From an uncultured Oscillospiraceae bacterium (GTDB lineage Bacteria; Bacillota; Clostridia; Oscillospirales; Butyricicoccaceae): a stretch of DNA of 64,000 nt. Positions 23,756-30,286 of this stretch are shown here, piece by piece; position 1 is the stretch's first letter, and each line of letters begins with the position of its first letter. Both the position numbers and the translations under genes were made by a program. The stretch is from the NCBI GenBank assembly GCA_964541085.1, contig CAZIPA010000006.1, positions 4,528 through 68,527 on the forward strand. Reading direction: 5' to 3'. The notes beneath the pieces were generated by a model, which ran no database searches, was not told the origin of the DNA, and saw only the letters and a list, made by a program, of their open reading frames with translations.

Positions 23756-23848
23756 GGGACGGCTCCTTTCTTTTCCCCTTGCCAGTGGGGAGAATCTGAT
23801 ATATAATAAGAAAAAGCATTGCGGAAACGGGAAAAGGAGGTCTGTCCG

Positions 23849-24970
23849 GTGAGATCGTGGAAAAATGTGCTTGCGCTGCTGCTGGCGATGTGTCTGCTGC
23901 TGCCCCTGCTGCGGGGAAGCTGTCAGGCGGCGGAAAGCTATATCATCACCGTGACGGAGGACACCGTGCAGGAGGACACTGCCGACCCGGGCATGGCCCT
24001 GTATCTGGACGGCCTGATTTATGTGCCCTATACCACCCTTTCCCAGCTGAACCGCACCTGGGTGGCCTATAACGAGAGCAAAGCGCTGGTGACAGTCTAT
24101 CGGGTGGGCTATATCATTTATTTTGAGCTGGATACCGGCCTGACCTACAATCAGGACAACCGCTATGTACAGGTGTCGGCAAAAATGCGTTCCGGCGTGC
24201 CCTATCTGCCGGTGCAGGTGATCTGCAACTGGATGGGACTGTATTTTTCCTACACCTCCGCGTCGGCCTCCGGGCTGGGCTATCCCATTGTGCGGCTGGC
24301 CCGGGAAACCCCGGCCGTGTCGGATGAGACGCTGTACCGTCAGCAGGCGGCAACGCTGGCCGAGGTGGCAAAAAGCCGGGATATCCGTTCCGGACTGCAA
24401 TCTCCCGAGGTGGACATCCCTGCCCCCGAGCCGGAGGAACGGGACATTACCCTGCTGTTTGCCGGTGTGCCCGAGGGCGATGCGGCCCTGCTGCTGGATA
24501 CGCTGGAGGCAGGACAGACCCCGGCGGCCTTTTTCCTGTCGCCTGAGGATGTCAATGCCCAGGGGGCGCTGCTGCGGGAGGTCTATTGCCGGGGCTTTTC
24601 GCTGGGCATTCTGCTGGCGGGAGAAGACCCGCTGGAGGAGGCAAGGGCCGGATCGGAGGCTTATGCGGACACGCTGCACTGCCGGGTGCGTCTGGTGCTG
24701 TGCGCCCGGGCGCTGACGGAGGAAGAGGTGCGGACGCTGACGGAAAACGGCTTTGTGCCGGTGGCGGCAGAGCAGGATTATTCCCGCACGGAGCTGACCT
24801 CCCAAAAGCTGCTGTCTGCCCTGAAAAGGCTGCTGCGCACCGGAGACGGCGGCGAACGGCTGCTGCTGCGGCCCGACAGCATGGTGCAGGAGCTTTTGCC
24901 GGTGGTTTGCAGCTATCTTGTGGCGCAGAATTACACTGCACTGCCCCTGCACGAATGGACACAGCCTTAA
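23849..24970 (+). CDS. Secreted protein, degenerate polysaccharide-deacetylase (NodB)-like C-terminal domain
   Basis: About 373 aa from GTG 23849 (GGAGG RBS). Signal peptide. A copper-amine-oxidase-N-like 'stalk' segment. A NodB-like region lacking the canonical TFDDG. Function is low confidence. Confidence 0.6.
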   Translation: MRSWKNVLALLLAMCLLLPLLRGSCQAAESYIITVTEDTVQEDTADPGMALYLDGLIYVPYTTLSQLNRTWVAYNESKALVTVYRVGYIIYFELDTGLTYNQDNRYVQVSAKMRSGVPYLPVQVICNWMGLYFSYTSASASGLGYPIVRLARETPAVSDETLYRQQAATLAEVAKSRDIRSGLQSPEVDIPAPEPEERDITLLFAGVPEGDAALLLDTLEAGQTPAAFFLSPEDVNAQGALLREVYCRGFSLGILLAGEDPLEEARAGSEAYADTLHCRVRLVLCARALTEEEVRTLTENGFVPVAAEQDYSRTELTSQKLLSALKRLLRTGDGGERLLLRPDSMVQELLPVVCSYLVAQNYTALPLHEWTQP

Positions 24971-24998
24971 AGTGCGCTGTCAAGAGACGGTGTGACCC

Positions 24999-26633
24999 TT
25001 GACCCTTCCACTCCTTTGCCCTATGCTCATGGGAAAAAGGAGTGGTTTTCTATTGTATGAGCAACTGTTGACGGATATCCCGGCAGAGCAGAGCAGCGTC
25101 TCCCGCCGGGAGCTTTGCGCCGGAGACCCGGCACTGTTTGGGCGCACCTATCTTTCCCATTATCTCACCCTGCCCACACCGACCTTTCACAAAAAGCTGT
25201 GCCGCCTGTGGCAAAAGCAGGTGATGAAGGGCCGCTGTCCCTCGCCGGAAGCCCTGCCGGAGATGCTGGAGGCCAAAGGCTGCCGTCTGGCCATCGCTGC
25301 GCCCCGGGGCCATGCCAAATCCACGGTGATGAGCTTGCAGAATGTGCTCCATGCGGCGCTGTACGGCTACAAAAAATACATTCTGCTGGTGTCGGACACC
25401 GAGGCCCAGGCCTCCTCCTTTCTGGAGGCGGTGAAGGCCGAGCTGGAGGACAATGAAGGGATTTTGCGGGATTTCGGCGATCTGCGGGGAAAGGTGTGGA
25501 AAAGCACGGTGATCCTGCTGCGCACGGGGGTGCGCATTGATGCGGTAGGCTCCGGGCAAAAGCTGCGGGGACGGCGGCACGGGGCACGCAGACCCGATCT
25601 GATTCTGCTGGACGATATCGAAAACGATCAGGAGGTGCTGTCTCCCGACGGACGGCGCAAGCTGGAGCGGTGGTTTTTCGGCGCAGTGAGCAAGGCGGGC
25701 GACCGCTATACGGACATTGTGTGCATCGGAACGGTGCTCCATCATGACAGTCTGCTGGTGCAGCTGCTGCACAATCCGGCCTATCAGAGCCTGTGTCTGC
25801 GGGCGGTGGAGCGGTTTTCCGACCATCCTCTGTGGAAGCGCTGGCGGAGCTATTATACCGACCTGTCCGATCCCCGGCGGGAAAAGACAGCGGAACGGTT
25901 TTTCCAGCGCCACCGGAAGGAGCTTCTGGAGGGAACCAAGGTGCTCTGGCCCAAAAAGCTGTCCTATTATGACCTGATGTGTATGCTGGTCAGCGAGGGC
26001 GAGGGCTCCTTTTACCGGGAGATGCAGAACACGCCCATGGATCCGGCCTCCTGTCTCTTCCCCCGGGAGTGGCTGAAATATTACAATCCGGCAGAGGTGG
26101 ATTTTTCCCGGGGCTTCCGGTTTTTCGGCTATTGCGATCCCAGTCTGGGCAAAACGGCGGAGTCGGATTTTTCGGCCATTCTCACGCTGGCGCAGAATGT
26201 GCGGACCGGCGTGATGTATGTGCTGGACGCGGACATTCTCCGGCGGCATCCCGATGGCATTATTCGGGATATTCTGGAAAAGGCCCGCTGGCTGCTGCGG
26301 GAATATGGCGGGCAATATACGGCCTTTGGCGCGGAGACCAACCAGTTTCAGTGGTTTCTCAAGGAGCGTCTGGCGGCGGAGAGTGCGGCGGCGGGGGTGT
26401 ATCTGCCCATTACCGAGGTGCGTTCGGCAGCGGACAAGACCCTGCGCATTCAGACCCTTCAGCCGGATGTGCGCAACGGCTATCTGCTGTTCCGGCCGGA
26501 GCAGGAGGAGCTTCTGCGCCAGCTGACCCAGTTTCCGCTGGCCCGCCACGACGACGGCCCGGACGCATTAGAGGGCGCGGTTCGGCTCTGTAAGCAGGGG
26601 ATGCGGTTGGGAACATTGAAGCTGCGGGTGTGA
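24999..26633 (+). CDS. Phage terminase large subunit-like protein (orphan)
   Basis: About 530-544 aa; the start is uncertain. ATPase Walker A-like APRGHAKST and Walker B LILLDDIEND. C-terminal RNaseH-like nuclease region (ARHDDGPDALEGA). No portal, capsid or small-terminase neighbours. Confidence 0.8.
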   Translation: MTLPLLCPMLMGKRSGFLLYEQLLTDIPAEQSSVSRRELCAGDPALFGRTYLSHYLTLPTPTFHKKLCRLWQKQVMKGRCPSPEALPEMLEAKGCRLAIAAPRGHAKSTVMSLQNVLHAALYGYKKYILLVSDTEAQASSFLEAVKAELEDNEGILRDFGDLRGKVWKSTVILLRTGVRIDAVGSGQKLRGRRHGARRPDLILLDDIENDQEVLSPDGRRKLERWFFGAVSKAGDRYTDIVCIGTVLHHDSLLVQLLHNPAYQSLCLRAVERFSDHPLWKRWRSYYTDLSDPRREKTAERFFQRHRKELLEGTKVLWPKKLSYYDLMCMLVSEGEGSFYREMQNTPMDPASCLFPREWLKYYNPAEVDFSRGFRFFGYCDPSLGKTAESDFSAILTLAQNVRTGVMYVLDADILRRHPDGIIRDILEKARWLLREYGGQYTAFGAETNQFQWFLKERLAAESAAAGVYLPITEVRSAADKTLRIQTLQPDVRNGYLLFRPEQEELLRQLTQFPLARHDDGPDALEGAVRLCKQGMRLGTLKLRV

Positions 26634-27470
26634 GGGCCGTCGTCCTTCGCCGCCCAGTGGCGGCGTCACGCCGCAGGAAGCCGCAGAAGTGCGGCGACCG
26701 AGGCGGTGAAATAAAAAGGGGCCCCCGCAAAACCTGTTTTGCGGGGAAACCGGCCCGGATGCACTGGAAGGTGCCGTGCGATTGTGCAAGCAGGGGATGC
26801 GGTTGGGGACATTGAAGCTGCGGGTATGAGGCAGCTGCGCCTTGCGGCTTGGCTCTCCCTCTGGGAGAGCTGGCGGCGCAGCCGTCTGAGAGGGTTTTCG
26901 CTGCAAACCATCCCACAGATTTTATCGCTCAATAATTTATAGCATAATCATCCCCTGCCGGGCAGCTTGCGCAGGGATCCTTCGCCGATGAGTGTCGGCG
27001 AGAGGCTACATCTGATGATATCCCTGCGGGGATGGGGGTGATGCACCTGTCGGCGTGATGCGCACTTCGTGCGTGATGCGCCTGCGGGCGTTGGAAGACG
27101 AGAGACGAAGGTACAATCCCTCAGTCGGCACTTCGTGCCGCCAGCTCCCTTTACACAAGGGCGCCTTGGATATTTGCGGAAGCAAACCGCCCTCGCCGGA
27201 GCCGCCCCTGTGTAAGGGGAGGTGGCAAAACCGCCGGTTTTGACGGAAGGGTTGTCACTGCGTCCGGCTGATTCAGCGGCAAATGTCCCCGCCTCCCTCG
27301 TCGGATGGAGCCAAGAACGGGGGGCGAAAGGACAACCCTCTCAGTCACCTGCGGTGACAGCTCTCCCAAAGGGAGAGCCAAGCCCGAAAACCTCACGGCG
27401 CAAGCCGATTTCATCTTCGCAGAAGATTTCACCGGCGCAAGGCGATATCATTGCGCCGTCAGGCGACAAC
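26634..27470. repeat. Largest composite repeat block (modules B-inverted, ghost gene end, D, C, A)
   Basis: About 840 bp non-coding. 26636-26750 is module B inverted. 26840-26990 is the reverse complement of 34945-35100. 27005-27100 is module A. 27290-27470 matches 22900-22990 and the inverted start of 22754-22810. Confidence 0.8.
26752..26829 (+). pseudogene. Ghost copy of the terminase 3' end (last 25 codons + stop)
   Basis: Encodes GPDALEGAVRLCKQGMRLGTLKLRV*, identical to the terminase C-terminus at 26556-26633. 11 of 26 codons differ and every difference is synonymous. No upstream ORF is attached. Confidence 0.8.
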
Positions 27471-27658
27471 TCCCATCCTGCCGAAAAATTTTCGGATTCC
27501 TGCGTTTATTGGTAACAATGCGGTCAAACCGGGGAAAAGGCGGGGGTTTCCACGAAAAAATTTTTGAAATTTGGGGATGAAATTTCACCGGCTTTCTGGT
27601 ATAATAACGGAGATTGGAAAAATCCGCGAAAAACAATTTAATATAAGGAGTGTTACCA

Positions 27659-30286
<2,628 letters not shown>

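Follow-up and report, generated by a model that had tools for sequence, protein, structure and literature searches.

The stretch of DNA analysed here (the window, 64,000 nt) belongs to an uncultured Oscillospiraceae bacterium, whose 1.94-Mb metagenome-assembled genome (MAG), referred to as G000, is divided into 68 contigs. The window carries a gene for a terminase large subunit, the 3' end of which is present twice (Table 1). The gene's own end (the live copy) is followed by a short inverted copy (a') of an upstream coding sequence (a), by a non-coding hairpin repeat called module B, and by a second copy of the gene end (the ghost). The terminase reading frame is open from 24999 and contains a TTG at 25053, which lies 9 nt after AAAGGAG; judged from this spacing and from homologues of 511–527 amino acids, translation probably starts at this TTG and yields a protein of 526 amino acids. 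Only 14 nt of unique sequence (26832–26845) separate the ghost from the next repeat array.

Table 1. Features at the duplicated terminase end, in window coordinates.
Feature	Position	Strand	Remarks
Terminase large-subunit gene (live)	25053..26633	+	phrog_38, E = 8.8e-99
Arm a, GACGACGGCCC	26550..26560	+	Codons H-D-D-G-P; exact reverse complement of 26634-26644
Live duplicated segment	26555..26635	+	Last 25 codons, TGA, then GG
Arm a', GGGCCGTCGTC	26634..26644	+	Inverted copy of 26550-26560, between the stop codon and module B
Module B	26648..26749	+	Non-coding three-hairpin repeat of ~100 nt; linker CTT just before
Ghost terminase 3' end	26751..26831	+	Coding-like part 26752-26829; starts 1-2 nt past the last hairpin of module B
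Array of other repeat modules	26846..27465	.	620 nt, between the ghost and the ppdK promoter region; based on the copy-number profile
PPDK gene (pyruvate phosphate dikinase)	27650-30286

The 78-nt stretches 26556–26633 and 26752–26829 have the same translation, GPDALEGAVRLCKQGMRLGTLKLRV followed by a stop codon, and the repeat finder stretches this match by 1 nt upstream and 2 nt downstream to a direct repeat of 81 nt with 84% identity. The spacer between the 78-nt copies measures 118 nt, 102 nt of which are module B, and the 115-nt gap between the 81-nt copies is non-coding repeat. Live copy and ghost differ at 13 nt in 11 codons and every difference is synonymous, eleven being third-position changes and two first-position changes in leucine codons. 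With a chance of synonymous substitution of 26–32% in this repeat, the probability of 13 synonymous changes out of 13 is about 3e-8 to 3e-7. The differences form a mosaic: nine of the 11 differing codons fall within the first 12 codons, and 11 of 36 bases differ in the first 36 nt versus 2 of 42 in the last 42 nt (Fisher p = 0.005). Divergence in the first 36 nt is roughly at the between-species level, and the last 42 nt encode the species-variable tail. The ghost has no translation of its own, with an in-frame TAA 15 codons upstream and no ATG, GTG or TTG after that TAA. An initial annotation of the locus had described a duplicated terminase end with exclusively synonymous differences crowded at its start, a second copy more like a functional allele than a decaying slippage product, and DNA with a replacement gene end lying between the live and the displaced end; all of this is borne out. 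The 11-nt inverted copy at 26634–26644, which that annotation missed, is the most informative feature of the joint. Its template at 26550–26560 reaches across the position at which the duplication begins (26555), and the predicted 11-bp stem between a and a' is present in both the minimum free energy and the centroid DNA fold.

Module B is delimited by the hairpins CGCCGCC-CAGT-GGCGGCG and CCCCGCAAAA-CCTG-TTTTGCGGGG and gives 31–37 BLAST hits in G000. Read as CGCCGCC...TTTTGCGGGGAA, the window copy points in the same direction as the terminase gene; its earlier description as inverted refers to the reference copy chosen at the time. The module is present in nine of the 17 genomes available for the genus (all of them short-read MAGs, none closed) and, across a family-level sample of 27 genera, in this genus only. 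Every module B of G000 that has a gene end on its left is accompanied by a ghost, and all other copies have more repeat modules on their left. No Rfam family covers module B. A different module in the window (27385–27453, minus strand) shows a sub-threshold match to Gut-1 RNA (RF01706; 34 bits versus a gathering score of 50, E = 1.3e-4), and part of the modular repeat family may be a motif already catalogued from gut metagenomes.

Module B also occurs in head-to-tail arrays with a period of 117–118 nt (C23:13389-13728, C31:5711-6049 and C15:26828-27037 in G000), in which a small hairpin, GCTTGC-GCA-GCAAGC, stands in front of every unit and the terminal hairpin of internal units is missing its last arm. 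A second repeat type, about 184–300 nt long, has inverted ends (CAGCGTGTCAAAAAA... and ...TTTTCTGACAGTCTC) and in some cases contains module B; it was found in G000 (C47:3154-3516, C11:49406-49645, C12:38437-38675 and C10:32678-32928) and in G008 (L114 and L047). It is flanked by exact duplications of 27–41 nt, each corresponding to a complete terminator hairpin plus 0–2 nt per side.

As a short, hairpin-rich, modular, multicopy and intergenic element that is often located just past stop codons and can form arrays, module B resembles repetitive extragenic palindromes and bacterial interspersed mosaic elements (REP/BIME), BOX-type repeats and miniature transposable elements with inverted repeats (MITEs). 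Unlike REP/BIME and MITEs, it has no terminal inverted repeats, no short fixed target duplication of 2–10 bp and no RAYT/Y1 transposase; instead, its solo insertions carry 28–107-nt duplications of the upstream gene. A Y1/RAYT transposase (PF01797) is absent from the module-rich genomes G000, G009, G006, G008 and G011, and mobilisation of the RAYT/IS200 type was rejected on this ground.

The terminase is not the only gene with such an end. Loci in G000 were collected by a genome self-comparison for local low-copy direct repeats and by an independent protein-level scan for gene tails repeated downstream, and both scans converge on exactly five real loci. In addition to the terminase (81-nt duplication, 11 synonymous codon differences, a' of 11 nt), these are the genes for alanine racemase (alr; ~90 nt, 12 synonymous codon differences, a' of 10 nt), peptidyl-tRNA hydrolase (pth; 39 nt, four synonymous codon differences, a' of 13 nt), the peptide chain release factor PrfB with its PCRF and RF-1 domains (prfB; 105 nt, five synonymous codon differences, a' of 10 nt) and an M55 D-aminopeptidase (~35 nt, no codon differences, a' of 15 nt). 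All five share one layout: the live end with its stop codon is followed by a', by 2–17 nt, by module B in the orientation of the gene and, 0–2 nt after the last hairpin of the module, by the ghost, behind which the original downstream DNA continues. Leaving out boundary codons and stop variants, live and ghost codons in G000 differ by 32 synonymous and no non-synonymous changes. In alr and pth, the pattern of divergence along the duplication is the reverse of that in the terminase gene.

At least 12 more loci with the same layout are present in seven sister species, G006, G008, G009, G011, G015 and G016 among them. Several of their duplications are 100% identical over 28–62 nt, and such fully identical duplications look recent. 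The target is not always a protein-coding gene, as shown by tRNA-Gln(CTG), the last 22 nt of which are duplicated across the module. In G008 (L054 1148-1625) and G009 (L131 302-576), the 3' end of this tRNA and its terminator are found again on the far side of the module, and in G009 the a' sequence, GGATTCGAACCC, is templated on the T-arm of the tRNA. Two loci in relatives show amino-acid changes between ghost and live end: the tails FTRQLGWGK* and FTRQSEWNH* at G006 L055 (C9:2038-2138) and a Gly/Lys change at G009 L029. As these changes lie in the variable last residues, ghosts can derive from alleles with a different protein tail.

The architecture with a locus-specific a' is seen in eight independent assemblies, which bears on whether the terminase ghost could be an assembly artefact, i.e., a metagenomic strain mixture stitched into one contig. 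That G000 is a MAG of 68 contigs, and that the G009 assembly has both a contig break 4 nt past the module and a 65-N gap in the terminase 3' end, would fit this idea. However, module–ghost joint and live locus have at most 9–10 nt in common, a stretch too short for a de Bruijn mis-join; five loci of G000 and seven other independently assembled species show this architecture, and the prfB edge is identical in three assemblies. An artefact is therefore very unlikely. In the G009 sequence itself (L027 5556-5754, C30), the N gap lies inside the terminase 3' end, module B starts 5 nt past the stop codon and the contig ends without a second gene end having been assembled, a pattern suggesting that the assembly broke where a gene end is duplicated. 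The terminase-associated module B of G009 and that of the window have the AAATAAAAAGGGG variant in common.

The inverted copy can be followed through 11 loci, five in G000 and six in relatives, where it consists of 9–15 nt that match perfectly, except for one locus with 12 of 13 nt. At each of them its template straddles the left edge of the duplication, starting 2–7 nt upstream of that edge, and in a shuffle test an inverted match this long was obtained in 0–8 of 2000 shuffles per locus (terminase, 1 of 2000). Distances of 28–100 nt between a' and its template, at all 11 loci, suggest an inverted copy of the snap-back type known from SD-MMEJ, a form of end joining that depends on synthesis and is mediated by microhomology. 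None of the 13 relatives examined has the terminase a' behind its stop codon, a' is likewise absent at the empty sites of alr and prfB, and behind a ghost it is seen only in tandem repeats of the whole unit. In three cases (terminase, pth and G009 L029), the first 2–4 nt of a' are common to the ancestral downstream flank, in the terminase case the GG after TGA. At the M55 gene, G000 and G008 differ synonymously in a, and each a' matches its own species.

The initial annotation had explained the terminase ghost as an attL/attR-like integration scar or as the residue of a deleted second terminase-bearing element. Replacement of a gene end in frame, with retention of the displaced end, does speak for such a history, and the e14 prophage of Escherichia coli, which supplies a new icd 3' end when it integrates, resembles the terminase case. 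Yet the two copies enclose nothing larger than the 115-nt non-coding repeat, the neighbours are housekeeping genes, and the tyrosine integrase search (PF00589) gave three genome hits on contigs C5, C50 and C11 but none on the terminase contig C6 (serine recombinases were not searched). A whole-assembly search found a single terminase gene in G000, so that there is no paralog with a 3' end matching the ghost, and neither 78-mer recurs elsewhere in the 1.94-Mb assembly by BLAST or tblastn. The nearly identical 42-nt core, which had been proposed as an att site, is absent from the rest of the genome and occurs in neither of the two public collections that were scanned. Nor did a donor allele of the ghost turn up: the closest homologues (88%, 87% and 84% identity) and the 12 other gene-bearing species match neither copy, and degenerate and exact pattern scans of the two collections (metagenome contigs and genome contigs, from which near relatives may be missing) gave no match to either of them. 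Together with the occurrence of the same structure behind the four housekeeping genes alr, pth, prfB and M55 peptidase and behind tRNA-Gln, the lack of a recombinase, of a kb-sized element and of a reused core contradicts both versions of this explanation, which is most improbable.

Empty sites are available for three of the genes. In 12 other species the terminase end is single-copy and followed by an ordinary terminator. The alr site is occupied in G000 only, with a single end in all 14 readable relatives. The situation at prfB is different: the site is empty in the closest relatives, G009 (PrfB 97% identical) and G008 (96%), and also in G004, G002 and G014. It is occupied in G011 and G016, which are more distant (87%) and agree with G000 in a' (CGCCGTCCAT) and in the left edge. 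The prfB ghosts have all stayed intact, each with the Ser or Ala variant of its own species, and they differ from the live ends by synonymous changes only (five in G000, six in G011 and one in G016). The live prfB end of G000 has 5/66 differences to the live end of G011 versus 10 to G009 and 9 to G008; outside the end region, G000 is far closer to G009 and G008 than to G011. One codon is GCT in all three live copies, GCC in all three ghosts and in the empty genes of G009, G008, G004 and G002, and GCA in G014. Although the numbers are small, this pattern suggests that module B moves between lineages together with the adjoining live end.

The ghost probably, if not with great assurance, belongs to a long target duplication, of which it is the second copy and which arose as module B was installed just behind the terminase stop codon, in an event that has recurred at gene 3' ends across the genus. 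How the module was installed is a more tentative matter. It may be a transposase-free mobile element that spreads by copy-choice, with formation of the a' hairpin, copying of the module and re-priming at the foot of the hairpin, after which the coding copies would act as portable homology arms between species; we regard this as a possible scenario rather than a probable one. For the single insertion, the most likely path is template switching at a nascent hairpin. In the course of replication or repair synthesis, the nascent strand would come off its template shortly behind the stop codon, and its 3' end would snap back onto its own a via a microhomology of 2–4 nt and copy 9–13 nt, which become a'. 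The end would then switch to a module B copy elsewhere, copy it up to the terminal hairpin and pair again with the original template where this is exposed, next to the 5' foot of the a/a' stem, so that the gene end is replicated a second time. Written out, the observed anatomy is gene – a1 a2 – Q – stop / a2'a1' – linker – module / a2 – Q – stop – downstream, with Q being the rest of the duplicated end between a and the stop codon.

A copy-choice path of this kind would account for the flush joint between module and ghost, for the position of the edge 3–7 nt inside the stem and for microhomologies of 0–4 nt, such as GA|C at five left edges versus GGGGAA at the end of the module. Duplications of whole terminator hairpins, as found at the second repeat type, would be expected of the same process where the hairpin pre-exists. 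Tandem-inversion-duplication and Campbell-type circle models, worked through by hand, fail to give the order a' – module – ghost and were rejected. Retro-mobilisation was set aside as well: the sole RVT_1 hit of G000 lies on contig C22, and the presence of a reverse transcriptase across the genus is uncorrelated with that of module B.

The synonymous differences would have arisen after this birth. The two copies would be identical at first, as several in relatives still are, and since a neutral ghost would gain mostly non-synonymous changes, none of which are seen in G000, the differences point to functional alleles as their source. Later homologous recombination with diverged functional alleles would overwrite part of one copy: the live end could be overwritten from the left, and the ghost, which is collinear with empty-site alleles together with its downstream flank, from the right. 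As the heterologous module would force recombination tracts to end within the duplicated segment, mosaics with exclusively synonymous differences would result. In the same manner, the module and the adjoining live end could spread between lineages with the two conserved coding copies as homology arms. Identical repeats of 80–100 nt located 100 nt apart are easily deleted, and diverged duplicates should therefore survive longer.

The direct repeats exceed 30 bp, are single-copy in genomes without the insert (terminase, alr and prfB, in each case in other species) and do not recur elsewhere in the genome, and the insert contains no mobility gene. These traits define insertion with long target duplication (Nobusato et al. 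2000; Furuta, Abe and Kobayashi 2010, PMC2853133). As described in the abstract, results passages and discussion of the latter study, such insertions carry flanking direct repeats of more than 30 bp that are single-copy in empty genomes, are often located at a gene 3' end or a tRNA gene and contain no transposase or integrase, and their mechanism is unknown; what is inserted there is a kb-sized unit of restriction-modification genes, and a connection with the DNA breakage caused by these units was proposed. The events described here agree with this account in repeat length, in uniqueness of the repeat, in the choice of gene ends and tRNA genes as targets and in the lack of a mobility gene. They differ from it in that the insert is a multicopy, non-coding hairpin module of about 100 nt, found at many loci per genome and in one orientation. 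Since the insert is non-coding and not a restriction-modification unit, they represent a variant of the category rather than members of the published set. The templated inverted copy of the target edge (9–15 nt) is not mentioned in these sections of the 2010 study.

The structure could also be accommodated by a single event. In homology-facilitated illegitimate recombination, a diverged lineage in which terminase end, a' and module B were already joined would have supplied DNA that entered by a homologous crossover within the gene and by an illegitimate joint of the module's free 3' end at 26555; this would make the live end foreign and leave the ghost as the end native to the recipient, different from birth. 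Examples of such a route come from competent bacteria and from conjugation in E. coli (PMC3240628), and it is in line with joints at the 3' end of the module that show only 0–4 nt of microhomology and with a prfB live end that travels with the module across species (the shared GCT, and a G000 live copy closest to that of G011). It leaves the origin of a' and the position of the joint, 3–7 nt inside the a/a' stem at every locus, without explanation, and several duplications are 100% identical over 28–62 nt. Moreover, as the nearly identical 42-nt tail of the terminase varies between species, a second event (gene conversion) would be needed anyway. We consider this one-step route rather doubtful. 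The events of PMC3240628 and of transformation-triggered merodiploidy (PMC3784515) share with the present ones the integration of foreign or repeated DNA by a single homologous anchor and duplications from alternative pairing, but the joints found here are fixed relative to the stem instead of falling at random microhomologies, at a scale of ~0.2 kb as compared with 100–900 kb.

Transposition by an enzyme acting in trans would assign the joints to protein recognition instead. An enzyme that recognises a target hairpin or cruciform and cuts one strand at each of its feet would leave gaps whose repair duplicates everything between the cuts, and alleles would be exchanged later. The terminal inverted repeats of the second repeat type and its exact duplications, which match whole terminator hairpins within 0–2 nt, resemble what such an enzyme would produce, as do the constant orientation of the module relative to the gene and left edges that often read GA|CG. 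At coding targets, however, the a/a' stem does not pre-exist at empty sites, leaving no hairpin to be recognised, the ghost lacks a', and duplications of 28–107 nt are far beyond the staggers of DDE-type enzymes. With no Y1 transposase in the module-rich genomes and no integrase on the contig, a trans-acting enzyme seems an improbable cause, on a par with the one-step route.

Several observations weigh against installation of module B with a long target duplication, or against the copy-choice scheme proposed for it. The empty terminase sites and the allele comparisons come from other species, and all assemblies are short-read MAGs. The three-switch model of birth is inferred from junction anatomy only, and it leaves unexplained why fold-back priming always occurs near the base of the loop. 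No clear a' is seen at four of the ghost loci found in relatives, and other loci contain 2–27 nt of unexplained filler between duplication and a'. A structure-directed transposase acting in trans stays conceivable because the MAGs are incomplete. Either of the two terminase copies may have been the one overwritten, and the a/a' stem is still perfect though a lies in the diverged half, which means that an incoming allele must have carried the same 11-mer; this 11-mer is shared by five of the 13 relatives examined.

The intactness of the ghosts raises the question of whether they are maintained by selection as spare cassettes, i.e., as alternative ends that can be swapped in by recombination. 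Ghosts are intact at every locus, and those of prfB hold the Ser/Ala variant of their own species, as a maintained cassette would. Nevertheless, refreshing by recombination with empty-site alleles explains this intactness, and no function need be assumed. A swap changes nothing, given that the peptide encoded by live and ghost ends is the same, and the ghost has neither a start codon nor a ribosome-binding site. A role as a spare cassette is accordingly hardly to be expected.

Installation of the module with a long target duplication shares individual features with other known systems. As in the integration of e14 at icd and of elements at tRNA genes, the gene is kept intact by an equivalent incoming end, the old end is left downstream and the differences are allele-like; those cases involve an integrase, a fixed attP, a kb-scale element and one target, whereas here no recombinase is present, many unrelated genes are targeted and the 'replacement' is a copy of each target. 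SD-MMEJ-type scars likewise contain a short inverted copy of nearby sequence at the junction, apparently primed from 2–4 nt of microhomology on a folded-back 3' end, and a snap-back synthesis step has been described for this pathway (PMC5728401). They result from break repair and measure a few to ~30 nt, whereas the scar described here goes together with capture of an entire repeat element and with a second replication of the gene end that was looped out. A near-copy of a gene 3' end about 100–200 nt downstream is also found in diversity-generating retroelements. This possibility was rejected: the terminase differences are all synonymous and not adenine-specific (3 of 13 with A in the downstream copy), and there is no reverse transcriptase nearby.

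The terminase gene itself is surrounded by genes for an M20 peptidase, a PNP_UDP_1 nucleosidase and PPDK and by a partner open reading frame (ORF) of 383 amino acids; PALP, VanW and MFS ORFs are also among the neighbours. The terminase, which with its partner spans 23819–26633, is an orphan, as there are no other phage genes and no integrase among the neighbouring ORFs examined. The partner gives weak matches to Cu_amine_oxidN1 and to polysaccharide deacetylases. The pair is kept in 13 of the 16 other species of the genus, in wider contexts that vary, and the terminase family has more than 3000 homologues in public data.

Long target duplications have been on record since 2000 without a mechanism, and for restriction-modification units only. 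In one genus, about twenty events are now at hand that are small, independent and in part very young; they share a single element of ~100 nt and have readable junctions, most of them with a templated inverted copy, which turns an anecdotal class of rearrangement into one that can be dissected. If true, spread of module B by copy-choice would be the missing mechanism for insertion with long target duplication. For annotation, ghosts of this type should not be taken for phage att sites or pseudogenes. For the bacteria themselves, these loci indicate that essential genes (alr, pth and prfB) can have their 3' ends colonised by non-coding repeats without harm, and that untranslated ghost ends can persist intact via recombination with functional alleles.

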